This document shows, piece after piece, positions 7,426-25,002 of a DNA stretch of 64,000 nt; positions within the stretch are counted from its first letter, which is position 1, and each line of letters starts with the position of its first letter. A model generated the notes under the pieces. The model did not search any database, was not told where the DNA came from, and was given only the letters and a program-made list of their open reading frames with translations. The position numbers and the translations under genes were made by a program. This stretch comes from Escherichia coli (GTDB lineage: Bacteria > Pseudomonadota > Gammaproteobacteria > Enterobacterales > Enterobacteriaceae): assembly GCF_002854065.1 (NCBI RefSeq), contig NZ_CP024153.1; one strand, 5' to 3'.

Positions 7426-7509
7426 TTTAAGACCCTTAATTGTTGGGATTTGGCTGCATAACGCCTGAAATAAGCCGTGCCGCGAAGCGGCATCGGCTTG
7501 ATTGAATTG

Positions 7510-8142
7510 TTAGACGGCAAACTCGAGCCAATACTTGTGCAGGCCAACAATATTAGACGAGCACAGCATGGGCATTGCCGCTTTGATCTTCTCCAGTGAC
7601 CAATTCCACCACTCCATCTCCAGAAGCAATGAAATTTCCTCATCGGTGAAGCGTTTCTTAATCTTCTTAGCGGGATTGCCGCCAACGATAGCGTAAGGCT
7701 CCACATCTTTTGTCACCAACGAGCGGCTGCCTATCACCGCACCGTGCCCGATCTTGATTCCGGGCATGACCATTGCCTCAGAGCCGATCCAAACGTCATT
7801 GCCAATGACAGTATTACCTGCTTTTTGGAAGGCATCGAGTGCGCTTGAGAATGCAGGTTCTTCCTGCATATAAAAGAACGGGAAAGATGATGCCCAGTCG
7901 TACCGATGCCCCTGATTGCCAGCCATGATAAAGGAAGCCCCACTCCCGATAGAGCAGAAACTACCGATGATCAACTTATCAACGTCATCACGGTCCGGAA
8001 ACAGATACCGTGCGCAGTCATCGAATGAGTGCCCATGATAGTAGCCAGAGTAATAGCTGTACCGCCCAACTTTGATATTGGGGTTCTTCACTTGCTCAGA
8101 AAGCAGCTTGCCTTTGAAGGGGCTATCAAAGTAGTTGGTCAT
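7510..8142 (-). CDS. catB3: CatB3 xenobiotic (chloramphenicol) acetyltransferase, full length (integron cassette)
   Basis: 210 aa [42 protein letters not shown]... with hexapeptide-repeat acetyltransferase character. Confidence 0.9.
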
Positions 8143-8279
8143 AAGAGATCCCGCGGTCTGTGACTTTGCCGTCTAACGTTTGAAATAAGGGGCGCCGAGC
8201 GCCAGCGAGGGGAGCCAAAAGCTTGCTTTTGGCCGTCCCGACTTGATTGAAGGGTTGGGCGATTTTGCCATTAGATTTT

Positions 8280-9110
8280 TTATAAATTTAGTGTGTTTAG
8301 AATGGTGATCGCATTTTTCTTGGCTTTTATGCTTGATGTTAAATTCGACCCCAAGTTTCCTGTAAGTGCGGACACAAAAACATATTTATGTCCTGATTTG
8401 CTTATAATAAACCCTTCAAACCATCCGTTTTGTAAGGTTCTATTTGCTGTGAATCCTGCACCAGTTTTCCCATACAGTTTTGTACTATTATCCAGATCTT
8501 GTAGATACATGTTCTCTATGGTGTTTTCTATGGCTGAGTTTTTAACTGGGAGATTGTGATTAATAATTTTACGCAGGAATTGAATTTGTTCTTCTGGTGA
8601 AATTTTTAAGCTACTTTCGAGCCATGCTTCTGTTAATCCGTTGTTTCTTTCTTTATCTCCAGAGAAGTCTTGATTTCCATAATCAAAATCTTTGAGATAA
8701 TTCTTGATTTTATTTAATCCAATTTTTTGGGTTATTTCTTGCGAAACCCAAACAACAGAAAATTGCATCCACGTCTTTGGTGTATGATTGCTGTTCCAGA
8801 TCTCCATTCCTTTGGGGGTTTTATCCCATTTGAATATGGTTTTCTGATCTATTATTTCCGCATCAAATGCCATAAGTGATAATGCGATCTTGAAAGTTGA
8901 ATCTGGTGCCATTTGCGTTGCACACTTTGCTTTATTGAATTGAGCAATTTCAGCGTTTGTGGATGCATCGTAAAGTAAAAAACAACCTTCAGTTCCTTCA
9001 AATAATGGAGATGCAACAGTAGAGATATCTGTTGATGCACTGGCGCTGCTGTAGATAATATTTGCAATTATTAAAAAAATAGCGAAGTTGATATGTATTG
9101 TGTTTTTCAT
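8280..9110 (-). CDS. blaOXA-1: OXA-1 class D beta-lactamase (integron cassette)
   Basis: 276 aa from internal start MKNTIHINFAIFLIIANIIYSSASASTDISTV...; STFK active-site motif present; the ORF track extends 15 codons upstream. Confidence 0.93.
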   Translation of the reverse strand: MKNTIHINFAIFLIIANIIYSSASASTDISTVASPLFEGTEGCFLLYDASTNAEIAQFNKAKCATQMAPDSTFKIALSLMAFDAEIIDQKTIFKWDKTPKGMEIWNSNHTPKTWMQFSVVWVSQEITQKIGLNKIKNYLKDFDYGNQDFSGDKERNNGLTEAWLESSLKISPEEQIQFLRKIINHNLPVKNSAIENTIENMYLQDLDNSTKLYGKTGAGFTANRTLQNGWFEGFIISKSGHKYVFVSALTGNLGSNLTSSIKAKKNAITILNTLNL

Positions 9111-9958: not shown

Positions 9959-10023
9959 TAGGGCGACTGCCCTGCTGCGTAACATCGTTGCTGCTCCATA
10001 ACATCAAACATCGACCCACGGCG
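9959..10023 (-). other. attI1 recombination site of integron A (approximate)
   Basis: 5'-CS sequence ...GCCCTAAAACAAAG/TTAG... junction with the first cassette. Confidence 0.5.
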
Positions 10024-10086
10024 TAACGCGCTTGCTGCTTGGATGCCCGAGGCATAGACTGTACAAAAAAACAGTCATAACAAGCC

Positions 10087-10768
10087 ATGAAAACCGCCAC
10101 TGCGCCGTTACCACCGCTGCGTTCGGTCAAGGTTCTGGACCAGTTGCGTGAGCGCATACGCTACTTGCATTACAGTTTACGAACCGAACAGGCTTATGTC
10201 CACTGGGTTCGTGCCTTCATCCGTTTCCACGGTGTGCGTCACCCGGCAACCTTGGGCAGCAGCGAAGTCGAGGCATTTCTGTCCTGGCTGGCGAACGAGC
10301 GCAAGGTTTCGGTCTCCACGCATCGTCAGGCATTGGCGGCCTTGCTGTTCTTCTACGGCAAGGTGCTGTGCACGGATCTGCCCTGGCTTCAGGAGATCGG
10401 AAGACCTCGGCCGTCGCGGCGCTTGCCGGTGGTGCTGACCCCGGATGAAGTGGTTCGCATCCTCGGTTTTCTGGAAGGCGAGCATCGTTTGTTCGCCCAG
10501 CTTCTGTATGGAACGGGCATGCGGATCAGTGAGGGTTTGCAACTGCGGGTCAAGGATCTGGATTTCGATCACGGCACGATCATCGTGCGGGAGGGCAAGG
10601 GCTCCAAGGATCGGGCCTTGATGTTACCCGAGAGCTTGGCACCCAGCCTGCGCGAGCAGCTGTCGCGTGCACGGGCATGGTGGCTGAAGGACCAGGCCGA
10701 GGGCCGCAGCGGCGTTGCGCTTCCCGACGCCCTTGAGCGGAAGTATCCGCGCGCCGGGCATTCCTGGC
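10087..10768 (+). pseudogene. intI1: intI1 class 1 integrase, 3'-truncated by IS26 (about 227 of 337 codons)
   Basis: [53 protein letters not shown]...; ORF runs into the IS26 terminal repeat at 10769. Confidence 0.9.
10174..10202 (-). promoter_or_regulatory. Integron Pc cassette promoter, TGGACA-N17-TAAACT (PcH1-type)
   Basis: Hexamers read on minus strand inside the intI1 5' region. Confidence 0.6.
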
Positions 10769-11588
10769 GGCACTGTTGCAAATAGTCGGTGGTGATAAAC
10801 TTATCATCCCCTTTTGCTGATGGAGCTGCACATGAACCCATTCAAAGGCCGGCATTTTCAGCGTGACATCATTCTGTGGGCCGTACGCTGGTACTGCAAA
10901 TACGGCATCAGTTACCGTGAGCTGCAGGAGATGCTGGCTGAACGCGGAGTGAATGTCGATCACTCCACGATTTACCGCTGGGTTCAGCGTTATGCGCCTG
11001 AAATGGAAAAACGGCTGCGCTGGTACTGGCGTAACCCTTCCGATCTTTGCCCGTGGCACATGGATGAAACCTACGTGAAGGTCAATGGCCGCTGGGCGTA
11101 TCTGTACCGGGCCGTCGACAGCCGGGGCCGCACTGTCGATTTTTATCTCTCCTCCCGTCGTAACAGCAAAGCTGCATACCGGTTTCTGGGTAAAATCCTC
11201 AACAACGTGAAGAAGTGGCAGATCCCGCGATTCATCAACACGGATAAAGCGCCCGCCTATGGTCGCGCGCTTGCTCTGCTCAAACGCGAAGGCCGGTGCC
11301 CGTCTGACGTTGAACACCGACAGATTAAGTACCGGAACAACGTGATTGAATGCGATCATGGCAAACTGAAACGGATAATCGGCGCCACGCTGGGATTTAA
11401 ATCCATGAAGACGGCTTACGCCACCATCAAAGGTATTGAGGTGATGCGTGCACTACGCAAAGGCCAGGCCTCAGCATTTTATTATGGTGATCCCCTGGGC
11501 GAAATGCGCCTGGTAAGCAGAGTTTTTGAAATGTAAGGCCTTTGAATAAGACAAAAGGCTGCCTCATCGCTAACTTTGCAACAGTGCC
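10769..11588 (+). mobile_element. IS26 copy 3
   Basis: 820 bp with both terminal repeats. Confidence 0.95.
10814..11536 (+). CDS. tnpA: IS26 transposase Tnp26 (Gly184 form)
   Basis: Identical 240-aa ORF. Confidence 0.95.
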   Translation: MLMELHMNPFKGRHFQRDIILWAVRWYCKYGISYRELQEMLAERGVNVDHSTIYRWVQRYAPEMEKRLRWYWRNPSDLCPWHMDETYVKVNGRWAYLYRAVDSRGRTVDFYLSSRRNSKAAYRFLGKILNNVKKWQIPRFINTDKAPAYGRALALLKREGRCPSDVEHRQIKYRNNVIECDHGKLKRIIGATLGFKSMKTAYATIKGIEVMRALRKGQASAFYYGDPLGEMRLVSRVFEM

Positions 11589-11628
11589 AGACAAAAGGCT
11601 GCCTCATCGCTAACTTTGCAACAGTGCC
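11589..11628 (+). repeat. Tandem second copy of the last 40 bp of IS26 (remnant of an earlier IS26)
   Basis: AGACAAAAGGCTGCCTCATCGCTAACTTTGCAACAGTGCC occurs twice in direct succession (11549-11588 and 11589-11628). Confidence 0.85.
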
Positions 11629-12137
11629 CCCTCCCGCACGATGATCGTGCCGTGATCGAAATCCAGATCCTTGACCCGCAGTTGCAAACCCTCACTGATC
11701 CGCATGCCCGTTCCATACAGAAGCTGGGCGAACAAACGATGCTCGCCTTCCAGAAAACCGAGGATGCGAACCACTTCATCCGGGGTCAGCACCACCGGCA
11801 AGCGCCGCGACGGCCGAGGTCTTCCGATCTCCTGAAGCCAGGGCAGATCCGTGCACAGCACCTTGCCGTAGAAGAACAGCAAGGCCGCCAATGCCTGACG
11901 ATGCGTGGAGACCGAAACCTTGCGCTCGTTCGCCAGCCAGGACAGAAATGCCTCGACTTCGCTGCTGCCCAAGGTTGCCGGGTGACGCACACCGTGGAAA
12001 CGGATGAAGGCACGAACCCAGTGGACATAAGCCTGTTCGGTTCGTAAACTGTAATGCAAGTAGCGTATGCGCTCACGCAACTGGTCCAGAACCTTGACCG
12101 AACGCAGCGGTGGTAACGGCGCAGTGGCGGTTTTCAT
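11629..12137 (-). pseudogene. intI1: intI1 class 1 integrase, 3'-truncated at a different point (about 170 codons retained)
   Basis: Same N-terminus as the other intI1, ends ...[12 protein letters not shown] then IS26-end sequence. Confidence 0.9.
12022..12050 (+). promoter_or_regulatory. Integron Pc cassette promoter, TGGACA-N17-TAAACT (PcH1-type)
   Basis: Hexamers read directly in the 5'-CS. Confidence 0.6.
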
Positions 12138-12211
12138 GGCTTGTTATGACTGTTTTTTTGTACAGTCTATGCCTCGGGCATCCAAGCAGCAAGCGCGTTA
12201 CGCCGTGGGTC

Positions 12212-12277
12212 GATGTTTGATGTTATGGAGCAGCAACGATGTTACGCAGCAGGGCAGTCGCCCTAAAACAAAGTTAG
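12212..12277 (+). other. attI1 recombination site of integron B (approximate)
   Basis: 5'-CS ...GCCCTAAAACAAAG/TTAG junction with the dfrA12 cassette. Confidence 0.5.
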
Positions 12278-12281
12278 CCAT

Positions 12282-12779
12282 ATGAACTCGGAATCAGTAC
12301 GCATTTATCTCGTTGCTGCGATGGGAGCCAATCGGGTTATTGGCAATGGTCCTAATATCCCCTGGAAAATTCCGGGTGAGCAGAAGATTTTTCGCAGACT
12401 CACTGAGGGAAAAGTCGTTGTCATGGGGCGAAAGACCTTTGAGTCTATCGGCAAGCCTCTACCGAACCGTCACACATTGGTAATCTCACGCCAAGCTAAC
12501 TACCGCGCCACTGGCTGCGTAGTTGTTTCAACGCTGTCGCACGCTATCGCTTTGGCATCCGAACTCGGCAATGAACTCTACGTCGCGGGCGGAGCTGAGA
12601 TATACACTCTGGCACTACCTCACGCCCACGGCGTGTTTCTATCTGAGGTACATCAAACCTTCGAGGGTGACGCCTTCTTCCCAATGCTCAACGAAACAGA
12701 ATTCGAGCTTGTCTCAACCGAAACCATTCAAGCTGTAATTCCGTACACCCACTCCGTTTATGCGCGTCGAAACGGCTAA
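12282..12779 (+). CDS. dfrA12: DfrA12 trimethoprim-resistant dihydrofolate reductase (cassette)
   Basis: 165 aa MNSESVRIYLVAAMGANRVIGNGPNIPWKIPGEQKIFRRLTEGKVVVMGRKTFESIG... Confidence 0.93.
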   Translation: MNSESVRIYLVAAMGANRVIGNGPNIPWKIPGEQKIFRRLTEGKVVVMGRKTFESIGKPLPNRHTLVISRQANYRATGCVVVSTLSHAIALASELGNELYVAGGAEIYTLALPHAHGVFLSEVHQTFEGDAFFPMLNETEFELVSTETIQAVIPYTHSVYARRNG

Positions 12780-12890
12780 CCATTCCGTCAACGGGACGCC
12801 AAAATGCTGCGCATTTTGGTTCCCTCCGCTGCGCTCCGGCTCTCGTTACGTCCAACGTTAGCACCACTGAAACCCAGCTTTATTTAGCTC

Positions 12891-13181
12891 ATGTTTATTC
12901 AAACGGCATTTAGCTTTTCAGGCGTTATTCAGTGCCTGTTTTGCCTTTTTTCCGGGCTTCGCCTGCATGGGCTGCGCAGGTTTTCAGTCTTTTTGGCCTC
13001 TAGCCCTTGCGTAGCAAGCGCAAGCAGCTATCGTTTTTGCAGTGCTGTGCCGCCTCGGTGGCGCAGCGTTTTTTCACGGTTAGCGCCCGTCGCCAAATTC
13101 AAGTTATCCGTTTTGGCTTCTGGTTCTAACATTTCGGTCAAGCCGACCCGCATTCTGCGGTCGGCTTACCTCGCCCGTTAG
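12891..13181 (+). CDS. gcuF: gcuF/orfF gene cassette of unknown function
   Basis: 96-aa ORF between dfrA12 and aadA2, the position of the classic array. Confidence 0.75.
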   Translation: MFIQTAFSFSGVIQCLFCLFSGLRLHGLRRFSVFLASSPCVASASSYRFCSAVPPRWRSVFSRLAPVAKFKLSVLASGSNISVKPTRILRSAYLAR

Positions 13182-13186
13182 ACATC

Positions 13187-13978
13187 ATGAGGGAAGCGGT
13201 GACCATCGAAATTTCGAACCAACTATCAGAGGTGCTAAGCGTCATTGAGCGCCATCTGGAATCAACGTTGCTGGCCGTGCATTTGTACGGCTCCGCAGTG
13301 GATGGCGGCCTGAAGCCATACAGCGATATTGATTTGTTGGTTACTGTGGCCGTAAAGCTTGATGAAACGACGCGGCGAGCATTGCTCAATGACCTTATGG
13401 AGGCTTCGGCTTTCCCTGGCGAGAGCGAGACGCTCCGCGCTATAGAAGTCACCCTTGTCGTGCATGACGACATCATCCCGTGGCGTTATCCGGCTAAGCG
13501 CGAGCTGCAATTTGGAGAATGGCAGCGCAATGACATTCTTGCGGGTATCTTCGAGCCAGCCATGATCGACATTGATCTAGCTATCCTGCTTACAAAAGCA
13601 AGAGAACATAGCGTTGCCTTGGTAGGTCCGGCAGCGGAGGAATTCTTTGACCCGGTTCCTGAACAGGATCTATTCGAGGCGCTGAGGGAAACCTTGAAGC
13701 TATGGAACTCGCAGCCCGACTGGGCCGGCGATGAGCGAAATGTAGTGCTTACGTTGTCCCGCATTTGGTACAGCGCAATAACCGGCAAAATCGCGCCGAA
13801 GGATGTCGCTGCCGACTGGGCAATAAAACGCCTACCTGCCCAGTATCAGCCCGTCTTACTTGAAGCTAAGCAAGCTTATCTGGGACAAAAAGAAGATCAC
13901 TTGGCCTCACGCGCAGATCACTTGGAAGAATTTATTCGCTTTGTGAAAGGCGAGATCATCAAGTCAGTTGGTAAATGA
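13187..13978 (+). CDS. aadA2: AadA2 streptomycin/spectinomycin adenylyltransferase ANT(3'')-Ia family (cassette)
   Basis: 263 aa MREAVTIEISNQLSEVLSVIERHLESTLLAVHLYGSAVDGGLKPYSDIDLLVTV... Confidence 0.93.
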   Translation: MREAVTIEISNQLSEVLSVIERHLESTLLAVHLYGSAVDGGLKPYSDIDLLVTVAVKLDETTRRALLNDLMEASAFPGESETLRAIEVTLVVHDDIIPWRYPAKRELQFGEWQRNDILAGIFEPAMIDIDLAILLTKAREHSVALVGPAAEEFFDPVPEQDLFEALRETLKLWNSQPDWAGDERNVVLTLSRIWYSAITGKIAPKDVAADWAIKRLPAQYQPVLLEAKQAYLGQKEDHLASRADHLEEFIRFVKGEIIKSVGK

Positions 13979-14032
13979 TGTCTAACAATTCGTTCAAGCC
14001 GACCGCGCTACGCGCGGCGGCTTAACTCCGGC

Positions 14033-14132
14033 GTTAGATGCACTAAGCACATAATTGCTCACAGCCAAACTATCAGGTCAAGTCTGCTTTTATTATTTTT
14101 AAGCGTGCATAATAAGCCCTACACAAATTGGG
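14033..14132 (+). other. First ~100 bp of the class 1 integron 3'-CS, cut before qacEdelta1
   Basis: Same sequence as 6760-6858 (inverted) up to ...ACACAAATTGGG, then unrelated low-GC DNA. Confidence 0.8.
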
Positions 14133-14462
14133 TAAAACCGCAAGAACTGTAATTATGAATTTGTCAGAAAACTATCCGTACAAGGAAGTGTATGAAAAAT
14201 GTCTGGTATAATAAAGATATCATCTTGAAAATCGAGTGTTGCTCTGTGGATAACTTGCAGGGTTTAATAAGTATCTTTACTCAAAAGTTGCAATCAATAA
14301 TTTATTGAAAAAGATTGAAAGGTGGTGGTAAATAATGTTACAATGTGGGAGTATCAGTTTAAATTCTTCGTGAAATAGTGTTCTTTTAAGCTAATAAAAA
14401 ATGCACGTGGAATTTAGGTCAAAGAAAAGTAAAGAAAAATTTATTTATGGAGGTAAAAAAGG

Positions 14463-14855
14463 ATGAGTCAAGTTGTTGATTTTTTAAATGAAGCAAAAAC
14501 TTTTTATTTTGCAACCGTTGAAGGAGACCAGCCAAGGGTCAGACCGTTTAATGCAGCCATGGAGAGGAATGGCAAGGTCTATCTTGGTACAACCAATCAG
14601 AAAAAAGTTTATCAGCAGTTATTGGCAAATTCAAAGGTGGAAGTCTCAGGTATGGCAAAAGGAAAATGGATTCGGCTCACCGGCGAAGCCGTAATTGATG
14701 ATACCGTGGAAGCAAGGGAAGCAATGCTTGAAGCAAATCCGCCTTTGAGAGATTGGTATAGCGCTGATGATGGGAAATTCACCGTATTTTATTTGAAAAA
14801 CATGCAGGCAGTTTTATATTCCTTTACAGGAGATCCGGAGATATTAGATAATTAA
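14463..14855 (+). CDS. Pyridoxamine-5'-phosphate-oxidase-like FMN-binding family protein (hypothetical) in low-GC segment
   Basis: 130-aa ORF with AT-rich upstream region and RBS-like GGAGG; family assignment by general sequence character, unverified. Confidence 0.5.
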   Translation: MSQVVDFLNEAKTFYFATVEGDQPRVRPFNAAMERNGKVYLGTTNQKKVYQQLLANSKVEVSGMAKGKWIRLTGEAVIDDTVEAREAMLEANPPLRDWYSADDGKFTVFYLKNMQAVLYSFTGDPEILDN

Positions 14856-15095
14856 TCAAAACATGCAGCCCAGTGGTAGAATGAACTGACCCCCATAAGT
14901 TAGACCAAAAATCTAACTTATGGGAGGTCATTTTTTATGGCAAAATACAGTTATGAATTTAAGTTACAAGTTGTTCAAGCATATTTAGATTTTTATTTTG
15001 TCCGTTTTGTCTAGCTTACCGAAAGCCAGACTCAGCAAGAATAAAATTTTTATTGTCTTTCGGTTTTCTAGTGTAACGGACAAAACCACTCAAAA

Positions 15096-15133
15096 TAAAA
15101 AAGATACAAGAGAGGTCTCTCGTATCTTTTATT
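15096..15133 (-). terminator. Bidirectional hairpin terminator downstream of bleO
   Basis: A-run, stem GATACAAGAGAG/CTCTCGTATC, T-run read directly. Confidence 0.5.
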
Positions 15134-15174
15134 CAGCAATCGCGCCCGATTGCTGAACAGATTAATAATAGATT

Positions 15175-15552
15175 TTAGCTTTTTATTTGTTGAAAAAAGC
15201 TAATCAAATTGTTGTCGGGATCAATTACTGCAAAGTCTCGTTCATCCCACCACTGATCTTTTAATGATGTATTGGGGTGCAAAATGCCCAAAGGCTTAAT
15301 ATGTTGATATAATTCATCAATTCCCTCTACTTCAATGCGGCAACTAGCAGTACCAGCAATAAACGACTCCGCACCTGTACAAACCGGTGAATCATTACTA
15401 CGAGAGCGCCAGCCTTCATCACTTGCCTCCCATAGATGAATCCGAACCTCATTACACATTAGAACTGCGAATCCATCTTCATGGTGAACCAAAGTGAAAC
15501 CTAGTTTATCGCAATAAAAACCTATACTCTTTTTAATATCCCCGACTGGCAA
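15175..15552 (-). CDS. bleO: Bleomycin-binding protein, glyoxalase/VOC fold (BleO-like, Gram-positive type)
   Basis: 125 aa MPVGDIKKSIGFYCDKLGFTLVHHEDGFAVLMCNEVRIHLWEASDEGW... matches recalled pUB110-type Ble. Confidence 0.75.
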   Translation of the reverse strand: MPVGDIKKSIGFYCDKLGFTLVHHEDGFAVLMCNEVRIHLWEASDEGWRSRSNDSPVCTGAESFIAGTASCRIEVEGIDELYQHIKPLGILHPNTSLKDQWWDERDFAVIDPDNNLISFFQQIKS

Positions 15553-15648
15553 TGCCGGGATAGACTATTATTCTCCCCGGAGCCACTACGCTGACCCGGT
15601 TGATTTCAGAGGTAAGGGAAAAGGCGACGTTGCGCCTGTGGAACAAAC

Positions 15649-16470
15649 GGCACTGTTGCAAAGTTAGCGATGAGGCAGCCTTTTGTCTTATTCAAAGGCC
15701 TTACATTTCAAAAACTCTGCTTACCAGGCGCATTTCGCCCAGGGGATCACCATAATAAAATGCTGAGGCCTGGCCTTTGCGTAGTGCACGCATCACCTCA
15801 ATACCTTTGATGGTGGCGTAAGCCGTCTTCATGGATTTAAATCCCAGCGTGGCGTTGATTATCCGTTTCAGTTTGCCATGATCGCATTCAATCACGTTGT
15901 TCCGGTACTTAATCTGTCGGTGTTCAACGTCAGACGGGCACCGGCCTTCGCGTTTTGAGCAGAGCAAGCGCGCGACCATAGGCGGGCGCTTTATCCGTGT
16001 TGATGAATCGTGGGAATCTGCCACTTCTTCACGTTGTTGAGGATTTTACCCAGAAACCGGTATGCAGCTTTGCTGTTACGACGGGAGGAGAGATAAAAAT
16101 CGACAGTGCGGCCCCGGCTGTCGACGGCCCGGTACAGATACGCCCAGCGGCCATTGACCTTCACGTAGGTTTCATCCATGTGCCACGGGCAAAGATCGGA
16201 AGGGTTACGCCAGTACCAGCGCAGCCGTTTTTCCATTTCAGGCGCATAACGCTGAACCCAGCGGTAAATCGTGGAGTGATCGACATTCACTCCGCGTTCA
16301 GCCAGCATCTCCTGCAGCTCACGGTAACTGATGCCGTATTTGCAGTACCAGCGTACGGCCCACAGAATGATGTCACGCTGAAAATGCCGGCCTTTGAATG
16401 GGTTCATGTGCAGCTCCATCAGCAAAAGGGGATGATAAGTTTATCACCACCGACTATTTGCAACAGTGCC
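15649..16470 (-). mobile_element. IS26 copy 4 (822 bp; two 1-bp insertions)
   Basis: Both terminal repeats present; extra A at about 16010 (GGGAATCTG vs GGGATCTG) and extra T at about 15953 (GCGTTTTGAGC vs GCGTTTGAGC). Confidence 0.95.
15701..16425 (-). pseudogene. tnpA: IS26 tnpA disrupted by frameshift (split into 144-aa and 107-aa ORFs; Asn184 form)
   Basis: ORFs 15991-16425 and 15701-16024 together cover Tnp26 with a frame change between them. Confidence 0.85.
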
Positions 16471-16584
16471 TAAAAATCGACCATACAGAGAGGGAAACCA
16501 CCGGAGTGGTGGGAAAAGCAGAAAGGCTCACGTGGCATAAGGCGTGGACAATGGTATCGACTGGTTTTTCAATTTCCTATACGT
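16471..16584. repeat. 114-bp fragment identical (inverted) to the 3'-side end of the IS91-family element at 23324-23437
   Basis: Reverse complement of 16471-16584 matches 23324-23437; abuts the IS26 end on one side and GTTC-containing flank on the other. Confidence 0.8.
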
Positions 16585-16673
16585 GAACTATTGAAGTAAT
16601 CAATCAAATTTTATAGGCTGATAGCCAAGTAACAACCACCAATGATATGCCAGGTAAAATCAGGGGACGTAAA

Positions 16674-18110
16674 ATGAGTACTCTTGATGTTCAGAAGCTC
16701 AAGGATGATGCCGTCGAATGGGCCTTAACTCATGGTGTTGCTTTCAAGGAATCGTCGTATTCCGCAGTGCATACCCCGTTTACCCTGACACCAACACCTA
16801 TCAGCCGTAAATCCTATCAGTACTTAAAGAATGCAACAGGAATACTCAGCAAATTAATCTATTCAGTTTCTGAGGATCATGATTTTTTGTACTCTGCGAT
16901 TTATCCCATCAAGGCCGGGAATGCCTTCTTTTCAGCCCTCCTGAACATGCATCAACAAATCCATTCATCATCAAGGCATGCTCCTCGATTACCATTACTC
17001 ATTATGCGTAGCGACTTTATGGATGATAATCGTGATGGGTTCAGGCTTATAGAGTTCAATGGTATAGCTGCAGGAATGGGGCCGTTTGGTCAGCGGATAC
17101 ATGATCTGCATCACTATCTACAACGGCAATATCCCGCTGTCTTTTCTGATTTATCGAATCAGGCAACAGGGGCGCTTGTCGACAATCAAGCGATCGAAGG
17201 GTTATCAGCAGCGATTTGTCAGGCAACTTGCAGAATTAAGCAGGAGTTCGGAGACCCCGGCCCTGCCAGGTTCCTGATGATTGTGCAGGAGAATGAAAAT
17301 AATGTGTTTGATCAACACTTGCTTGAGCTCGCCCTCCAGCAAAAAGGAATCGAAACGCATCGCAGGACTTTTCGTGAACTGCATAATCAATTGAGTACAG
17401 GCGCCGACAACAGGCTCATTCTCGAGGGTGTAGGCCCACTTGATACCGTCTACTTACGTGCCGGATATCAGTATTCTGATTATGAAGCATTCAATATCGA
17501 TGAGCAGGAGTGTTGTCAGGCGCTGATGGCGACCCGAGTATTCATTGAGCAGCACCGGGTTGCAGTGAACGCCACAGTTGGCCAGCAACTGGCGACCAGC
17601 AAGCGAGTACAAATGCTGCTCTCGCAATTGGGTTACGACGAGTTTGTCGCATTTGGATTAACACTGCAGGAAGCTAAAATAGCAAAAACGATACTGGGTG
17701 AGATGTTACCCATCAGCCCGGATAGTATCAACCTTGCAAAAGAGTCTCCTTCGGAAACCTGGGTTCTCAAAAATCAGGGTGAAGGCGGGGGGCATTGTCT
17801 GTTTGGTGCGGATATCCTGACAAAACTGACGGAACTCACTCCACAACAATATCAGTCCTGGTCGCTGATGCGCCGTTTACACCCTCAGCCCCGAGCTATG
17901 CCCACCTTGATTGTGCGTAAAGGGGAGTTGCATAAGGTGAATGATTTGATAAGCGAACTTGGAATGTTCTCCGTGCAGACAGATAACAATCCCTCCAGTG
18001 CTGAGCACAGTTTTGCTGGATATCTAATTCGTAGCAAATCAGCTGAATCGACAGAGGGAGGGGTCCATAGTGGACAAGGTGTTTTAGACTCGCTGGTATA
18101 CAGCGATTAG
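16674..18110 (+). CDS. Eukaryotic-type glutathione synthetase-like ATP-grasp protein (ORF track start 16647)
   Basis: Blocks resembling recalled human GSS: TPFTLTPT, IEFNGIAAGMGP, LMIVQENENNVFDQ...IETHRRTFREL, VYLRAGYQ, KNQGEGGGHCLFG. Confidence 0.7.
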   Translation: MSTLDVQKLKDDAVEWALTHGVAFKESSYSAVHTPFTLTPTPISRKSYQYLKNATGILSKLIYSVSEDHDFLYSAIYPIKAGNAFFSALLNMHQQIHSSSRHAPRLPLLIMRSDFMDDNRDGFRLIEFNGIAAGMGPFGQRIHDLHHYLQRQYPAVFSDLSNQATGALVDNQAIEGLSAAICQATCRIKQEFGDPGPARFLMIVQENENNVFDQHLLELALQQKGIETHRRTFRELHNQLSTGADNRLILEGVGPLDTVYLRAGYQYSDYEAFNIDEQECCQALMATRVFIEQHRVAVNATVGQQLATSKRVQMLLSQLGYDEFVAFGLTLQEAKIAKTILGEMLPISPDSINLAKESPSETWVLKNQGEGGGHCLFGADILTKLTELTPQQYQSWSLMRRLHPQPRAMPTLIVRKGELHKVNDLISELGMFSVQTDNNPSSAEHSFAGYLIRSKSAESTEGGVHSGQGVLDSLVYSD

Positions 18111-18527
18111 TCCCTTTCAAGGGGGCTGAAATCTGGTTATATGAAAGCATGCGGTAAGTGGTGTTTTAGCCCCAGTGGAGATGATGCTGTTTCTAGACTG
18201 AGTCGTAGTAAGCTAATAATAGTATTATAAATGAAGCCATGAGGGTATTTACAGGGCATATCTTATTAAGGGAACAACAGCAAAAACTGCTGCTATAAGA
18301 GGCTGCACCCAAAGTTCTTCAAGGTTCACATCATCGCTGCTGGGTCGATGCTGTTTCAGTTACGGGTCAATTTTCAATACCATTAGCTGTTCCTGTGACT
18401 ACGGTCATTACGCGCTGTCGACATCAATTTGTACAGCAAACAGTCTTAGCGTGGGATATTTAATGAGATGGTCACTCCCTCCTTCCCGGTACTATGCTGA
18501 GGATAGGCTTTCATTCGGAGAACTATC

Positions 18528-19532
18528 ATGGAAAACATTGCGCTCATTGGTATCGATCTGGGTAAAAACTCTTTCCATATTCATTGCCAAGATCGTCGCG
18601 GCAAGGCTGTTTACCGTAAAAAATTTACACGGCCAAAGTTAATCGAATTTTTGGCGACATGCCCCGCTACAACCATCGCAATGGAAGCCTGTGGTGGCTC
18701 TCACTTTATGGCACGCAAGTTGGAAGAGTTGGGGCATTTTCCTAAGCTGATATCACCACAATTTGTCCGTCCATTCGTTAAAAGTAACAAAAACGACTTT
18801 GTCGACGCCGAAGCTATTTGTGAAGCTGCATCGCGTCCGTCTATGCGTTTTGTACAGCCCAGAACTGAATCTCAGCAGGCAATGCGTGCGCTGCATCGTG
18901 TCCGTGAATCCCTGGTTCAGGATAAGGTAAAAACAACCAATCAGATGCATGCTTTTCTGCTGGAATTTGGCATCAGCGTTCCACGAGGAGCTGCCGTTAT
19001 TAGCCGACTGAGTACCCTTCTTGAGGACAATAGTTTGCCTCTATACCTCAGCCAGTTATTGCTGAAATTACAACAGCATTATCACTATCTTGTTGAGCAG
19101 ATTAAAGATTTGGAATCCCAGTTGAAACGAAAGTTGGACGAAGATGAGATTGGACAGCGCTTGCTGAGCATTCCCTGCGTCGGAACACTGACAGCGAGTA
19201 CTATTTCAACTGAGATTGGCGACGGGAAGCAGTACGCCAGCAGTCGTGACTTTGCGGCGGCAACAGGGCTAGTGCCTCGACAGTACAGCACGGGAGGTCG
19301 GACGACATTGCTGGGAATTAGTAAGCGAGGTAACAAAAAGATCCGAACTTTGTTGGTTCAATGTGCCAGGGTATTCATACAAAAACTGGAACACCAGTCT
19401 GGCAAATTGGCCGATTGGGTCAGGGATCTACTGTGTAGGAAAAGCAACTTTGTCGTCACTTGTGCTCTGGCAAACAAGCTGGCCAGAATAGCCTGGGCCC
19501 TAACGGCACGACAGCAAACTTATGTAGCATAA
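18528..19532 (+). CDS. IS110-family (DEDD) transposase/recombinase
   Basis: 334 aa MENIALIGIDLGKNSFHIHCQD... N-terminal RuvC-like DEDD character and C-terminal ...GISKRGNKKIRTLLVQCA... motif typical of the IS110 family. Confidence 0.85.
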   Translation: MENIALIGIDLGKNSFHIHCQDRRGKAVYRKKFTRPKLIEFLATCPATTIAMEACGGSHFMARKLEELGHFPKLISPQFVRPFVKSNKNDFVDAEAICEAASRPSMRFVQPRTESQQAMRALHRVRESLVQDKVKTTNQMHAFLLEFGISVPRGAAVISRLSTLLEDNSLPLYLSQLLLKLQQHYHYLVEQIKDLESQLKRKLDEDEIGQRLLSIPCVGTLTASTISTEIGDGKQYASSRDFAAATGLVPRQYSTGGRTTLLGISKRGNKKIRTLLVQCARVFIQKLEHQSGKLADWVRDLLCRKSNFVVTCALANKLARIAWALTARQQTYVA

Positions 19533-19807
19533 CGGCAGAAATACACCGGTTTAAAGAATCACTGATCTGGTTTTGCGAATACTGATATTGATGATACTAA
19601 CGGCCCACCGGCCTGTTGAGGAACCTGTAAAACGGAAAGGCTCATTGAAGCCGTATATTTTCTGGAGGTTCATCAGGCGCGGAACTCATCGAGGCGCGGG
19701 AATAAAATCCCATTCAGACGCCGGATAGATTCAAGCAAGCCAATTTATCGTCAAAATCGGTGTTGCAAAAACGGGAGTGACCATAGATTCCGTTTTCCAA
19801 GCGGACC

Positions 19808-19870
19808 CCGTGCTGTGTGGAAATCCGCCCACCTTGCCGGGCGCCGGTGCTGTGTGGAAATTCGCCCATC
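19808..19870. repeat. About 1.6 copies of the 37-bp repeat unit (inverted relative to the 56063-57150 array), just downstream of the truncated rep gene
   Basis: CCGTGCTGTGTGGAAATCCGCCCACCTTGCCGGGCGCCGGTGCTGTGTGGAAATTCGCCC is the reverse complement of the array unit. Confidence 0.75.
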
Positions 19871-19919
19871 TTCATGACAAAAATTTGTCAAATGACAGGC
19901 TCATGTGTGCTGATTTATG

Positions 19920-20601
19920 TCAGACGGGATTTTGCTTATCAATTATTGAGAACAGAAATTTTCCTGAATCATCAATACTATACTTAGCAAGTAAAGGTGT
20001 TTTCTCATTTATCTGCTTGAGAGCAGGATCAAGGAAAGATCGTTTCAACTCTGCCAAGTTCTTCTGTTGGGATTCCGGCAAAAGGAAACGGTCATTTAAC
20101 CAAGCATGAGTAGTAACCCATAAGCCTGAAGATTTGAATTGAGCAAGACTTTCATAAAGGCGGATCGTCCGTGGATTTCGAAGACTGCCACAATCGCGGA
20201 GCGAGTAGGTGGTGAACTGGTTCGTCAGGCCGTAAATGTACCGCAGGAGTTTATGGTTAAATTCGATTTCCCAGATACCACGAGCTGATCGGCTGCCAGC
20301 CTCTGTTAGCCAGGGGCGCGCGACGCAGTCAAAACTCCCTTCTTTCGGGTAAAAGATTACCGCAGAACGGCTTAACTCAAACACGCCTTCTTTAACATCC
20401 TTGATAGCCTGGTTACGGCTTACCTGAAAAATTTGCTGATAGTCAGCCACCTTTACTTTGAAAGTAGAGTCACCGAGTACAGCCATCTCATCATCATCTT
20501 CGCTTACTGAAGCTGTGAAATACGTCTGCATAAGACATAACCAGAGAACGCGCTTTGCTTTTAGCGAGAGGTAGTAAGCAGCTTCGGTAAGCTCGTTAGA
20601 C
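19920..20601 (-). pseudogene. Rep_3-family (RepE-like) replication initiator, N-terminally truncated by IS26
   Basis: ...NELTEAAYYLSLKAKRVLWL...IRLYESLAQF... parallels recalled F RepE ([20 protein letters not shown]...MRLYESLCQY); first 17 residues of the ORF come from the IS26 end. Confidence 0.75.
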
Positions 20602-21421
20602 GGCACTGTTGCAAAGTTAGCGATGAGGCAGCCTTTTGTCTTATTCAAAGGCCTTACATTTCAAAAACTCTGCTTACCAGGCGCATTTCGCCCAGGGGAT
20701 CACCATAATAAAATGCTGAGGCCTGGCCTTTGCGTAGTGCACGCATCACCTCAATACCTTTGATGGTGGCGTAAGCCGTCTTCATGGATTTAAATCCCAG
20801 CGTGGCGTTGATTATCCGTTTCAGTTTGCCATGATCGCATTCAATCACGTTGTTCCGGTACTTAATCTGTCGGTGTTCAACGTCAGACGGGCACCGGCCT
20901 TCGCGTTTGAGCAGAGCAAGCGCGCGACCATAGGCGGGCGCTTTATCCGTGTTGATGAATCGTGGGATCTGCCACTTCTTCACGTTGTTGAGGATTTTAC
21001 CCAGAAACCGGTATGCAGCTTTGCTGTTACGACGGGAGGAGAGATAAAAATCGACAGTGCGGCCCCGGCTGTCGACGGCCCGGTACAGATACGCCCAGCG
21101 GCCATTGACCTTCACGTAGGTTTCATCCATGTGCCACGGGCAAAGATCGGAAGGGTTACGCCAGTACCAGCGCAGCCGTTTTTCCATTTCAGGCGCATAA
21201 CGCTGAACCCAGCGGTAAATCGTGGAGTGATCGACATTCACTCCGCGTTCAGCCAGCATCTCCTGCAGCTCACGGTAACTGATGCCGTATTTGCAGTACC
21301 AGCGTACGGCCCACAGAATGATGTCACGCTGAAAATGCCGGCCTTTGAATGGGTTCATGTGCAGCTCCATCAGCAAAAGGGGATGATAAGTTTATCACCA
21401 CCGACTATTTGCAACAGTGCC
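20602..21421 (-). mobile_element. IS26 copy 5 (variant: Asn184 plus one synonymous change)
   Basis: 820 bp; ...KLKRIINATLGFKS... Confidence 0.95.
20654..21376 (-). CDS. tnpA: IS26 transposase Tnp26 (Asn184 form)
   Basis: 240-aa ORF; GGC to AAC at codon 184 relative to copies 1-3. Confidence 0.95.
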   Translation of the reverse strand: MLMELHMNPFKGRHFQRDIILWAVRWYCKYGISYRELQEMLAERGVNVDHSTIYRWVQRYAPEMEKRLRWYWRNPSDLCPWHMDETYVKVNGRWAYLYRAVDSRGRTVDFYLSSRRNSKAAYRFLGKILNNVKKWQIPRFINTDKAPAYGRALALLKREGRCPSDVEHRQIKYRNNVIECDHGKLKRIINATLGFKSMKTAYATIKGIEVMRALRKGQASAFYYGDPLGEMRLVSRVFEM

Positions 21422-23183: not shown

Positions 23184-23325
23184 GGCACTGTTGCAAAGTT
23201 AGCGATGAGGCAGCCTTTTGTCTTATTCAAAGGCCTTACATTTCAAAAACTCTGCTTACCAGGCGCATTTCGCCCAGGGGATCACCATAATAAAATGCTG
23301 AGGCCTGGCCTTTGCGTAGTGCACG
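23184..23325 (-). mobile_element. IS26 fragment (142 bp of one end, internally truncated)
   Basis: GGCACTGTTGCAAAGTTAGCGATGAGG...GCGTAGTGCACG matches the IS26 end, then diverges. Confidence 0.9.
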
Positions 23326-25002
23326 TATAGGAAATTGAAAAACCAGTCGATACCATTGTCCACGCCTTATGCCACGTGAGCCTTTCTGCTTTTCCCACCA
23401 CTCCGGTGGTTTCCCTCTCTGTATGGTCGATTTTTATACCGTAACAGGCTGTTTTTTATACTTTCACCGATTCCCGGGCACACTTAGCCTGTGTCAGGCC
23501 GGCATATACCTCAGTAGACTGATATCCCGCGCGTTTTTCTTCAGCCCTGATACATTCAGCCCCGCAATGGCCCGGCGGTATACCATCCGGCAGCCACACA
23601 GCACGCATTCGAACGGGTCACGACTCAGGAACTGTTTCACCATTTGTGCATAGCACACTTTCGCCACTGGTTCCGGTTTATCCATCCCCAGTGCACGGTA
23701 CACCTGCGGCAGCTTCTCTCCACACACACGGTTGGCAAGGAACCCGAAGTACCTCACCATCTTAAAAAACTTCTCCGGGATGTGCTGTTTCAGCCTCGCG
23801 ACCAGCTCACGCTGTGTCAGCGTTTCCGTCGCCGTTTCTCCCGTTTTGTGGTCCAGGTAACGGAAGCTCAGGCTTGCCCCTCCGTTGTAATGAGCCAGTC
23901 GGGAAGCCGCTATTGGTGGCTTCTTCAGATAACGACCCAGGTAGCGTGCCGTATTCCGCCCTCCGGCTGTCTTCTTCGACATGTACACATGCCAGTATTT
24001 TCCGCCGGATTTCAGCACCAGGCTTCTCCACTGTGATTCCGTCGTGATATGTGACAACGACTCCGGCATTGCCATCCCCTCTGACCACGCTTTCAGAAGC
24101 AGCTGCCGCATATTCCACATCCACCGTGAACGCATCGCGTCTTTCAGGAAGCTCAGCTTTTTCCACTGACCATGCTTATTCAGACCTCCACAGGTTACAG
24201 ACACATGTACATGCGGATGCCAGTTGAGACGACGGCCATACGTGTGGATGGCGCAGAAGATACCGGGTTCCAGCCCCCGTTTTCGGGCGGCATACAGCAG
24301 ATTCTCCACCGCCAGACGGCACACGTCATTCAGCAGCCAGCGGTTGCTTTCGAACACCGGCCACAGCGTGTCCGGCAGGGTGAAGACCAGATGTACCCAG
24401 TCGCAGTCAGGAAGACGATTCAGCTGTGTTGCTGTCCACAGGTCTGTGGCCTTCTTTCCGCAGGACGGGCAGGCACGGCTGCCGCATGAGTTGGTCAGGT
24501 ACTTTACGTGCTGACAGTCCGGGTTATCACACCCGAACTCTTTTACACCCAGTATCCGTGTGCCGCAGGCCAGCATTTTGGTGACGGCTTCAACCTCGAT
24601 ATCGCGCAGACCGCCCGCATCCAGGAAGGACGTCCAGCACTGGTTGGCTGTGAACAGACGTTTCAGAGGGCGGGGAGTAAAACCGGACAACATGAGGATG
24701 GATTAAACCCCGGTATCCTGTAGCAGGGTAAGGGCTGCTGTATCGCCACGGCGCTTCAGGATGGAGGTCGTCACCATCGCAGGTGGTGGGTCCATGGGTT
24801 TGAGCATTTTCATCCAGTCCCATTCTCGTTGTGAGAGCTTCTCAGCACCAACAGAGAGCAGAACTGTATCGATACTTTTGCGGGTCAACATAAGGGGATG
24901 AGTCCTTAATAAAACAGGTCCTCAGAGCATACATATTCTGCGGGGCGTGCGGCAACAACAGGACGAACCGGGGCGGTTTTCAATTTGCAGCCGCCAGGCT
25001 GC
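23326..25002 (-). mobile_element. IS91-family rolling-circle element (IS1294-like, about 1.68 kb); boundaries approximate
   Basis: Single HUH/Y2-type transposase ORF plus small upstream ORF; length consistent with IS1294; one end duplicated at 16471-16584. Confidence 0.65.
23494..24693 (-). CDS. tnpA: IS91-family (IS1294-like) transposase
   Basis: 399 aa with Cys-rich zinc-binding N-terminus (CGTRILGVKEFGCDNPDCQHVKYLTNSCGSRACPSCGKK), HVH (HPHVHVSV) motif and C-terminal tyrosines typical of IS91-family Y2 transposases. Confidence 0.85.
   Translation of the reverse strand: MLSGFTPRPLKRLFTANQCWTSFLDAGGLRDIEVEAVTKMLACGTRILGVKEFGCDNPDCQHVKYLTNSCGSRACPSCGKKATDLWTATQLNRLPDCDWVHLVFTLPDTLWPVFESNRWLLNDVCRLAVENLLYAARKRGLEPGIFCAIHTYGRRLNWHPHVHVSVTCGGLNKHGQWKKLSFLKDAMRSRWMWNMRQLLLKAWSEGMAMPESLSHITTESQWRSLVLKSGGKYWHVYMSKKTAGGRNTARYLGRYLKKPPIAASRLAHYNGGASLSFRYLDHKTGETATETLTQRELVARLKQHIPEKFFKMVRYFGFLANRVCGEKLPQVYRALGMDKPEPVAKVCYAQMVKQFLSRDPFECVLCGCRMVYRRAIAGLNVSGLKKNARDISLLRYMPA

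Follow-up and report, generated by a model that had tools for sequence, protein, structure and literature searches.

The 64,000-nucleotide stretch of Escherichia coli DNA analyzed here (contig NZ_CP024153.1, hereafter the window) carries, on the plus strand at 16674..18110, a gene of the eukaryotic-type glutathione synthetase (GS) family that encodes a protein of 478 amino acids identical to WP_000105383.1. The open reading frame (ORF) spans 16647–18110 and gives 487 amino acids when counted from its first ATG. The ATG at 16674 follows a GGGGA Shine–Dalgarno-like motif and is the PGAP start of WP_000105383.1, and the resulting length agrees with that of the homologues. Position 16471 is the first base past the right inverted repeat of an IS26 and not the start of the gene. 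A promoter and terminator scan of 16300–18600 gave nothing above the shuffled expectation, and a hairpin 3′ of the GS stop codon was marginal (z −1.9).

The left boundary is an 822 bp IS26 copy (15649..16470, minus strand) with terminal repeats at 15649–15662 and 16457–16470. It is 99.76% identical to other IS26 copies, with indels present, and its tnpA is split into two ORFs (15701–16024 and 15991–16425). Directly next to it lies the remnant of an IS91 (16471..16584, plus strand), namely the last ~114–118 bp 3′ of tnpA (the oriIS/IRR end), truncated on its left side by IS26. This remnant matches at 100% the sequence directly downstream of the annotated IS91 transposase genes in L014 and shows 99.2% identity to the terminus (23436–23317) of the complete IS91 copy in the window. 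A reading of the left flank as an upstream arsR remnant was rejected, as the sequence is that of the IS91 end. The remaining 89 bp before the start codon (16585..16673, plus strand) are native upstream DNA, formerly part of the divergent arsR–GS intergenic region, and begin at a GAAC tetranucleotide, the IS91 target. Homology to the Salmonella arsR–GS intergenic region begins at this GAAC (16585), and identity to the plasmids L096, L098 and L099 (99.8–99.9%), which carry arsenic-resistance (ars) islands, begins at the same base. A simple IS91 insertion at GAAC fits this junction better than a one-ended rolling-circle event in which IS91 captured GS, which is disfavored because the gene stands on the oriIS side. 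The oriIS side of IS91 is not the co-mobilized side.

On the right, a non-coding spacer (18111..18444, plus strand) leads from the GS stop codon to a transposon inverted repeat. This spacer occurs only along with the GS gene, all 347 plasmid records that contain it being GS-linked. The inverted repeat is a 38 bp terminal repeat of the Tn21-subgroup type, split by an insertion: its inner 17 bp (CTTAGCGTGGGATATTT) occupy 18445..18461, its outer part (…TCCGTTTTCCAAGCGGACCCC) lies at 19788..19809, and between them sits IS4321 of the IS110/IS1111 family (18462..19787, plus strand; tnpA at 18528–19532), which identical plasmids annotate as "IS110-like element IS4321 family transposase". The inner part of the repeat and the boundaries of IS4321 were defined by comparison with the uninterrupted repeat CTTAGCGTGGGATATTTTCCGTTTTCCAAGCGGACCCC, which is found in L096, L097/L098 and L099 with a different outside flank each time. 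Position 19809 is the end of the island. Beyond it (19810..20601, minus strand) lies the DNA of the insertion site, with repeated GTGCTGTGTGGAAAT(C/T)CGCCCA motifs as well as a gene for a RepE-like replication initiator (19920–20648) that is truncated by IS26; its NCBIfam match of 129 bits is below the cutoff, and L001 is annotated with "replication initiation protein" here. A second IS26 (20602..21421, minus strand), oriented as the first, closes a 5.8 kb segment, so that two direct-orientation copies (15649–16470 and 20602–21421) flank the GS gene. No 8 bp target-site duplication was seen around this IS26-bounded unit, whose left flank reads GAACAAAC and whose right flank reads GATTAGAG. The flanks are thus as the preliminary description had them, an IS26-truncated IS91 end on one side and an IS110-family element on the other.

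The encoded protein belongs to the eukaryotic-type GS family, with a similarity that is full-length and far above chance. A Pfam search returned PF03917 (GSH_synth_ATP; E 9.7e-61, residues 15–484) and PF03199 (GSH_synthase; E 4.3e-19, residues 209–316), the two domains being nested in the canonical way along the whole protein. Full-length matches from a sequence search of the PDB spanned 1e-41 to 1e-36 and included potato GS (5OES, 2.5e-41) and human GS (2HGS, 8.7e-40), each over ~470 residues. An AlphaFold2 model (pLDDT 86, pTM 0.88) matched the human, potato, yeast and soybean enzymes in Foldseek at TM scores of 0.83–0.86 (2HGS 0.85, 5OES 0.84, 3KAL 0.86; E ~1e-34). GshB, the E. coli-type GS, is expected to run the same reaction and belongs to the same ATP-grasp superfamily but is a different family. 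In the Pfam search, the plasmid protein matched no domain beyond those of eukaryotic GS; the PDB sequence search returned no GshB chain at E ≤ 1; and GshB was absent among the best 50 Foldseek matches. The earlier proposal of a eukaryotic-type rather than a GshB-type enzyme is therefore borne out.

The protein shares with eukaryotic GS (EC 6.3.2.3; 2HGS, 5OES, 1M0W) the Pfam architecture, the full-length fold and the ATP, Mg2+ and γ-Glu-Cys ligands, but it is only 24–27% identical to them and scores 236.4 bits against TIGR01986, under the curated equivalog cutoff of 329.8 bits. Four other family members, one of them from an operon with gshA, score 205–242 bits and are likewise below the cutoff. 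The plasmid-type family further differs in having GGGHC instead of GGGNN in the G-loop, GGVHSG instead of GGVAAG in the A-loop and a CC pair inserted after the S-loop, and its genes are bacterial and set within ars islands or gshA–ABC operons.

The γ-Glu-Cys, ATP and Mg2+ ligands are all conserved. Following PMC5919673, we took as the γ-Glu-Cys pocket Arg125 plus the six side-chain ligands of the γ-glutamate moiety; these residues (R125, Q211, E214, N216, Q220, R267 and Y270 in human GS numbering) are unchanged in the plasmid protein and do not vary among 118 family members. The same holds for the ATP, Mg2+ and glycine-triad positions E144, N146, K305, K364, E368, G369–371, M398, E425 and K452 and for R450. 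S149 is replaced by Ala and S151 by Gly, both small and uncharged; these two positions touch the substrate via the backbone (PMC5919673). The refuting condition set in the preliminary description, a similarity confined to generic ATP-grasp motifs or a loss of the substrate-binding residues, therefore fails: the similarity is full-length, and those residues are present. The divergent GSS22 and GSS30 effectors of Globodera pallida have the same fold and a retained ATP site, but all six of their γ-glutamate ligands are replaced and GS activity is lost (PMC5919673). Because the plasmid protein retains all six, it is much nearer to a working GS than these nematode proteins are.

The two loops with a non-canonical sequence are those that fold over the site of glycine and the γ-phosphate. 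In the A-loop, His-Ser takes the place of human Ala462-Ala463 in 118/118 and 84/84 members, while the backbone-forming Gly-Gly-Val is kept. In the G-loop, GGGHC is invariant across the family. Wider bacterial relatives (Aliikangiella, Reinekea) retain the A-loop His as GVH[RKS]G. Three active-site lids of the family carry the residues CC280–281, H374–C375 and H465, which are invariant or nearly so and missing in eukaryotic GS. In plant enzymes, the A-loop Ala-Ala pair is the known determinant of the third substrate, and in the soybean enzyme, its change to Leu-Pro shifts that substrate to β-alanine (PMC5919673).

Of 100,044 species-representative bacterial genomes, 190 contain relatives of the plasmid gene at 48–80% identity, mostly marine and aquatic Gammaproteobacteria. 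Since the best-characterized relatives are all eukaryotic, a recent acquisition of the gene from a eukaryote might be supposed, but the next-nearest relatives, at ~35% identity, are also bacterial, the eukaryotic enzymes are at only 24–34%, and the gene is embedded in bacterial operons; such an origin is rejected as effectively refuted. In a neighbor-joining tree, the plasmid gene falls within an ars-linked clade as sister to the gene of Salmonella Paratyphi B. All 13 chromosomal loci at least 64% identical to it (13/13; Salmonella, Aeromonas, Yersinia, Shewanella) lie among ars genes, and the family is repeatedly tied to ArsR and ArsP genes, an ArsP_1-family permease being its commonest neighbor; many members, however, have no ars neighbors. 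The homologues from ars islands of Shewanella and Aeromonas (among them those of Shewanella sp. ANA-3, S. putrefaciens 200 and pSheB of Shewanella sp. O23S) are 64–78% identical and stand among arsR, arsP, arsC, arsB/acr3, arsDA and gapdh–arsJ, whereas the copy in the window has lost every ars neighbor. Published maps of the Shewanella/Aeromonas ars/arr modules show a "glutathione synthetase" gene, and beyond this figure-legend mention (PMC6429310) our literature search found no functional study of a bacterial eukaryote-type GS or of the plasmid gene. At 10 loci belonging to a basal clade, GS ends the operon sigZ-gshA-ABC-ABC-GS, with a gshA that scores 488 bits against the TIGR01434 cutoff of 393. 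This coupling to gshA is absent from the ars-linked clade and from the window, in which tblastn found no ars, gshA, ABC or sigZ partner; the associated gshA-like gene suggested for this replicon was accordingly not seen within the 64 kb.

How, then, did the gene come to lie between two IS26 copies? Annotated ars islands from Klebsiella sp. w6, Salmonella pUWI-PS6.1 and E. albertii plasmids finish in a sequence 99.8–99.9% identical to the 1.9 kb segment 16585–18461. In these large islands, GS adjoins an ArsR-family regulator and comes last before the 38 bp Tn21-type inverted repeat that terminates them. The same repeat was found with four different outside flanks. In the window it is present as a single copy, with no second one, and neither the partner repeat nor the tnpA/tnpR of a Tn21-type element was found in the window or in the plasmids examined, in every one of which the other end of the island is truncated by IS26 or rearranged. 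IS4321 and IS5075 target the terminal repeats of the Tn21 family. The repeat here is of the same 38 bp GGGG…CACGCTAAG type as the Tn21-subgroup (Tn3-family) ends that are hit by these elements, and it too holds an IS4321, although its sequence (GGGGTCCGCTTGGAAAACGGAAAATATCCCACGCTAAG) has diverged from that of Tn21. In three lineages, the gene was severed from the island by a different element each time, IS91 in the window, IS3 in pUWI-PS6.1 and IS26 in E. albertii. Read from these junctions, the GS gene in the window is the leftover of the tip of an arsenic-resistance island and most likely not cargo carried for a purpose. It had been proposed to have been mobilized as IS-flanked cargo; rather than a self-standing cargo gene, it appears as the terminal gene of a Tn3-family-bounded ars island, cut off from its partners by IS91 and IS26.

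The gene is also far from rare. The identical protein, named "glutathione synthase", occurs in about 300 PLSDB plasmids and in 173 of 5,426 complete E. coli genomes, and the whole IS26–ΔIS91–GS–IS4321 block is present in about 295 PLSDB plasmids, so that its description as an unusual plasmid cargo is not supported. It is already annotated and widely copied; what is new is its origin in an ars island. In most plasmids with the segment, the ORF is intact and at least 99.8% identical. Several plasmids (H159–H163) hold GS copies truncated by IS26, and the copy of Klebsiella sp. w6 is frameshifted.

The reading we prefer, with a probability of about 0.6, is that of a working GS orphaned from arsenic detoxification that now hitch-hikes on the plasmid. 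The protein would most likely be an intact ATP-grasp ligase in which the C-terminal carboxylate of γ-glutamyl-cysteine is phosphorylated by ATP/Mg2+ before a small amino acid, most probably glycine, is attached, which would yield glutathione. Where it still closes its large native ars island and runs divergently from an ArsR-family regulator, it may supply more glutathione under arsenic, both for a glutaredoxin-coupled ArsC and for the thiol complexation or export of trivalent arsenicals. It is the gene neighborhood that points to this arsenic role. IS91 went in 89 bp ahead of the ATG, IS26 next deleted all the DNA further left, and IS4321 settled in the terminal repeat, leaving a 1.9 kb remnant that is now carried within an IS26-bounded piece of a multiresistance region. 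The orphan probably keeps its own promoter, while the repressor and all the ars partners are gone. Enterobacterial hosts already possess gshA and gshB, and glutathione synthesis is normally limited by GshA and not by GS. In such hosts, the plasmid gene is probably a redundant hitch-hiker. The comparisons show its family and fold, the conserved residues, the island origin, the junctions and the prevalence; the product, the arsenic-linked role, the expression and the lack of selection are inferred.

Could the gene instead be selected cargo that, acting with sil or other plasmid functions, makes the host more tolerant of oxidants, electrophiles or metals, as the preliminary description suggested? 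An intact, at least 99.8% identical ORF that has lost its repressor would fit some advantage for the host. The native 89 bp upstream are kept without the divergent ArsR-family repressor, so that constitutive expression is possible, and related plasmids carry glutathione-dependent functions such as FosA3. Yet the near-identity among plasmids reflects the recent spread of a single IS26-bounded block and is no sign of purifying selection, some copies are truncated or frameshifted, and the partner genes are absent from the window. Enterobacterial hosts have gshA and gshB of their own, with GshA normally limiting, and the natural association of the gene is with ars, nothing tying it to sil. We consider selection of this kind improbable. 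A somewhat different doubt concerns the product itself, which may not be glutathione because the Ala-Ala pair that sets the third substrate in plants is His-Ser here. An enzyme that takes γ-Glu-Cys but joins it to a third residue that is not glycine, or works on a different acceptor, would make a glutathione analogue the real product of the family. The invariance of His-Ser, the change of Asn-Asn to His-Cys in the G-loop and the A-loop His of Aliikangiella and Reinekea are in line with this, and soybean homoglutathione synthetase (3KAJ/3KAK/3KAL), whose 3KAL structure is among the best structural matches (same fold, TM 0.86), is a precedent for an A-loop change that alters the third substrate, although it carries Leu-Pro where the plasmid GS family has His-Ser. 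A second enzyme with a different product would be sensible if the hosts have a canonical gshB, as is expected for most of them (Vibrio, Shewanella, Aeromonas). Against this, Arg450 and Gly-Gly-Val are retained, the operon link to gshA is equally consistent with plain glutathione, and we know of no thiol analogue reported from Vibrio, Shewanella or Aeromonas. Nematode clade 1 enzymes, moreover, have non-Ala residues in the A-loop and still prefer glycine (PMC5919673). We regard an analogue as an unlikely product.

The His and Cys residues of the lids invite a further thought, that they form a metalloid- or redox-sensing site through which the enzyme would be gated by arsenite or thiol status or would act in part by binding As(III). 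ArsD, ArsR and ArsA usually coordinate As(III) through vicinal cysteines together with a third cysteine, and the conservation of the lid residues within a family repeatedly linked to ArsR and ArsP would suit such a role. However, the residues are equally kept in many members without ars neighbors, the CC pair is missing in the distant relatives P0124–P0126, and the model has low confidence at 264–276, immediately before that pair. We consider a sensing site very improbable. Returning to the orphaned GS that we prefer, its family may be more than a redundant source of glutathione in its native hosts. A tentative and rather unlikely proposal is that the gammaproteobacterial "GS2" family (GGGHC, GGVHSG and the CC pair) serves as a dedicated thiol-peptide synthetase, induced or gated by arsenite, that would work with the adjacent ArsP_1-family permease and an ArsE-type thioredoxin-like protein, supplying the thiol ligand, glutathione or an analogue, for the conjugation and export of trivalent arsenicals.

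For the plasmid itself, the gene matters little: it already has a name and is often carried along in IS26-rich multiresistance regions, where it is best read as the scar of an ars island. To see in it a novel determinant of tolerance, or something that acts together with sil, is attractive but wrong. To annotators, it offers a marker for the remnants of such islands. The interest lies in the family, a bacterial eukaryote-type GS wired either to ars genes or to an operon of gshA and ABC exporters and bearing an invariant, non-canonical glycine site, which raises the question of a second, arsenic-linked bacterial route to glutathione or an analogue. If the proposal for GS2 were correct, arsenic detoxification in bacteria would have an uncharacterized branch in this family, and the sigZ-gshA-ABC-ABC-GS operon would be its sister version for the synthesis and export of a thiol.

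The plus strand carries a single long ORF at 16647–18110. We read its start codon as ATG 16674, since a GGGGA motif lies 7 nt upstream, the resulting 478-aa product has the same length as its homologues, and RefSeq chose this start too (WP_000105383.1). The product belongs, over its full length, to the eukaryotic-type glutathione synthetase (GS) family. Pfam matched residues 15–484 of the ORF to GSH_synth_ATP (E = 9.7e-61), with a GSH_synthase domain nested inside it (E = 4.3e-19), and a PDB sequence search returned eukaryotic-type enzymes exclusively, all aligned end to end (potato GS, 2.5e-41; human, 8.7e-40; soybean homoglutathione synthetase (hGS), 6.5e-38; yeast, 5.1e-36). Similarly, an AlphaFold2 model based on 24 homologues (pLDDT 86, pTM 0.88) gave TM scores of 0.85 when superposed on human GS and 0.86 when superposed on closed soybean hGS. 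No likeness to bacterial GshB appeared in the Pfam, PDB sequence or structure-superposition searches, and the preliminary description, which had placed the protein with the eukaryotic enzymes and not with GshB, is thus borne out along its whole length.

Could this protein be a working enzyme? We aligned it residue by residue to 2HGS and compared it with an alignment of 118 homologues. The catalytic Arg125, which contacts the cysteine, the Mg2+ ligands (E144, N146, E368), the ATP ligands (K305, K364, K452, M398, E425), the glycine triad with Arg450, and the full set of six side chains binding the γ-glutamate part of γ-Glu-Cys (Q211, E214, N216, Q220, R267, Y270) are identical in the plasmid GS and invariant among its bacterial relatives (the bacterial GS family). 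Human Ser149 and Ser151 are replaced by Ala and Gly; according to Lilley et al., these positions touch the substrate through the backbone and need only small residues (PMC5919673). The same work marks inactive nematode GS-like effectors by the loss of the six γ-glutamate ligands; because the plasmid GS has kept them, it looks, by that criterion, like a working enzyme that accepts γ-Glu-Cys. The similarity is therefore not limited to generic ATP-grasp motifs, nor are substrate residues missing, the two findings that had been named as grounds for dropping the assignment. The plasmid GS is a full-length ligase of this family with an intact γ-Glu-Cys pocket, and is probably competent in catalysis.

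Against NCBIfam TIGR01986, the plasmid GS scored 236 bits, under the 329.8-bit equivalog cutoff. Since four other members of the bacterial family, one of them encoded in a gshA operon, scored 205–242 bits too, the low value is, on sequence grounds, a matter of divergence of the entire family and not of decay of the plasmid copy. The lids over the glycine/γ-phosphate site read GGGHC and GGVHSG throughout the family, whereas human-type enzymes have GGGNN and GGVAAG, and no eukaryotic GS shares the bacterial form; a CC pair directly after the S-loop is nearly invariant. In a homology search of 1.84 billion representative proteins, full-length family members scored 326–522 bits and the next proteins at most 186 bits; the HC/HS signature occurred only within the family, wider bacterial relatives (Aliikangiella, Reinekea) retaining the His alone. 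All three active-site lids (residues 280–281, 374–375 and 465–466; window ~17511–17516, ~17793–17798 and ~18066–18071) carry invariant or nearly invariant His/Cys residues missing from eukaryotic GS, which could bind a metal or metalloid or act as a redox site.

The gene had been regarded as unusual plasmid cargo, a view that does not hold. About 295 PLSDB plasmids (Escherichia, Salmonella, Klebsiella, Enterobacter) carry the IS26-ΔIS91-GS-IS4321 block at ≥99.9% identity, and in them the gene is labelled "glutathione synthase" or "Eukaryotic glutathione synthase, ATP binding domain". Of 5,426 complete E. coli genomes, 173 contain it, with 194 of the 199 copies on plasmids. Its presence on a plasmid is already known, annotated and ordinary.

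Where did the gene come from? Window positions 16585–18461 match, at 99.8–99.9% identity, the ends of large annotated arsenic-resistance (ars) islands in three plasmids: an IncF plasmid of Klebsiella sp. w6 (pond sediment), Salmonella pUWI-PS6.1 and an E. albertii plasmid. The Klebsiella order is arsR-arsH-sigma-arsD-arsA-GNAT-arsC-arsB-arsA-arsD-arsR-arsC-phosphatase-arsC-arsR(HTH_20), then the divergent GS gene and the terminal repeat; the GS gene there (L097, 9573–11037) is frameshifted, the ancestral context being otherwise kept. Citrobacter plasmids, one from C. arsenatis, have a Salmonella-type version adjoining arsC and a regulator. Different elements cut the gene from the island in three lineages: in the window this was done by IS91 and then IS26, in E. 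albertii by an IS26 inside arsR, and in pUWI-PS6.1 by an IS3-family element. Furthermore, IS26-truncated 3' parts of the gene stand alone in several Salmonella and E. coli plasmids. These comparisons show, at the level of sequence, that the gene was once the last in an ars island, oriented divergently to an ArsR-family regulator, and that it now stands orphaned among IS elements. Within the 64-kb window, homologues of ars, gshA, ABC and sigZ genes are all absent, and the proposed search for an associated gshA-like gene was accordingly negative there. In the Salmonella Paratyphi B island (L009), a ferredoxin/molybdopterin oxidoreductase set, possibly an arsenate- or sulfur-respiring reductase, lies between arsRDA and arsC/GS (3046–8441), and a CBASS defence system (SMODS, SAVED, Cap2-like, JAB) lies directly 3' of the GS gene (11595–16522).

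The IS26 copy on the left (15649–16470) measures 822 bp versus the usual 820, with its transposase split into two ORFs (15701–16024 and 15991–16425); a frameshift, possibly leaving the element defective, or else an assembly error would account for this. Position 16471 is base 1 past its right terminal repeat, so the span originally flagged runs from the IS26 boundary to the GS stop codon. The next stretch, 16471–16588, matches both the sequence immediately 3' of annotated IS91 transposase genes and the end of a complete IS91 in the window (23436–23317), which confirms the IS26-truncated IS91-family end described earlier. This complete copy (23184–25000 region, minus strand; tnpA 23494–24693, 309 bits to the IS91 model) has an oriIS end 99.2% identical to the remnant, so that the window contains a complete as well as a truncated IS91. 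A 142-bp IS26 fragment (23184–23325) adjoins the complete element. Homology to the chromosomal Salmonella Paratyphi B relative starts at GAAC, the IS91 target, at 16585–16588, 89 bp 5' of the start codon.

On the right, 334 bp past the GS stop, CTTAGCGTGGGATATTT is followed by IS4321 (18462–19787) and then by TCCGTTTTCCAAGCGGACCCC. In three other plasmids, these halves form one continuous 38-bp Tn21-type repeat, GGGGTCCGCTTGGAAAACGGAAAATATCCCACGCTAAG, and all four cases have different DNA outside it; because of this uninterrupted form and these four different flanks, the repeat is a genuine mobile-element terminus. Tn21-type termini are the expected target of IS4321 (IS4321/IS5075). Directly outside the repeat, at 19810–19880, repeated GTGCTGTGTGGAAAT(C/T)CGCCCA motifs precede an IS26-truncated gene for a RepE-like initiator; apparently, the ars island had first integrated next to the iterons of a small replicon, and capture of the block came later.

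Scanning one genome per species turned up GS relatives in 190 stretches, nearly all of them from marine or aquatic Gammaproteobacteria; for 83 non-redundant loci, we scored the gene neighbourhood against reference ars proteins and by clustering the adjacent ORFs. The 13 loci whose products are ≥64% identical to the plasmid GS (Salmonella, three Aeromonas, Yersinia, and six Shewanella, ANA-3 and S. putrefaciens included) all lie among ars genes. Across the 83 loci, an ArsP_1-family permease was the commonest neighbour (22); ArsR-family regulators and SigZ-type ECF sigma factors each stood at 16 loci, ABC exporters at 15 and GshA at 10. In Photobacterium piscicola (L072, 4078–11443), sigZ (4078–4620), gshA (4684–6312; TIGR01434, 488 bits versus a cutoff of 393), two ABC half-transporters and a GS homologue (9983–11443) share one strand, and this operon offers the strongest contextual evidence available for a role of the family in step two of glutathione synthesis. 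We rooted a neighbour-joining tree on human GS; it carries no bootstrap support and is to be taken as indicative. In it, the plasmid gene stands next to the Salmonella copy within the ars-linked Aeromonas/Yersinia/Shewanella clade, and the gshA-linked loci group nearer the base. Recent transfer from a eukaryote is ruled out, as the best matches outside the family are other bacterial proteins (~35% identity), with eukaryotic GS at 24–34%. The SigZ-family factors, which have a Cys-rich C-terminus, occur in the sigZ-gshA-ABC-ABC-GS operons of Photobacterium and Vibrio and also inside enterobacterial ars islands (for example L072; L069, 11492–12037; L098, 23272–23817), and may be thiol- or metalloid-responsive regulators.

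How might such an enzyme serve an ars island? The plasmid GS would join γ-Glu-Cys and glycine through an acyl-phosphate intermediate. Within the island, arsenite would de-repress the gene, and the extra glutathione would serve glutaredoxin-coupled ArsC and the binding or export of trivalent arsenicals. On the plasmid, the gene may be expressed from the retained 89-bp upstream region without the repressor; the enzyme would add little where the host has gshA and gshB, and the gene would persist by linkage to resistance genes. That it instead has real selective value on the plasmid seems to us quite improbable. The Ala-Ala pair determines the third substrate in plant enzymes (PMC5919673), and this position is non-canonical in the bacterial family, so the product could be a glutathione analogue; use of a third substrate other than glycine is nonetheless rather unlikely. 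We give a probability of about 0.6 to the whole reading of a competent GS of ars-island origin, now an orphaned hitch-hiker, with glutathione as its product and an arsenic-linked role. We found no biochemical or genetic test of the bacterial family in the literature, its sole trace being the legend of a figure in which a "glutathione synthetase" gene of Shewanella/Aeromonas ars/arr modules is coloured (PMC6429310). As leads, the ars-island origin, the non-canonical glycine site shared by the whole family and the two operon contexts that recur are of modest interest, though not surprising.

Elsewhere in the window, oqxAB (within 27458–34293; OqxB 28866–32018, 2495 bits) lies between two IS26 copies, with genes for a P-type ATPase (35387–37864) and a sil/cus-type RND pump (38488–41634) beyond it, the context of an ordinary multiresistance and metal-resistance plasmid. 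Between aadA (13187–13978) and IS26, a low-GC patch (14000–15600, 34–39% GC) contains bleO (15175–15552, minus strand) and a 130-aa ORF without an NCBIfam match (14463–14855), and looks like DNA from a low-GC source.
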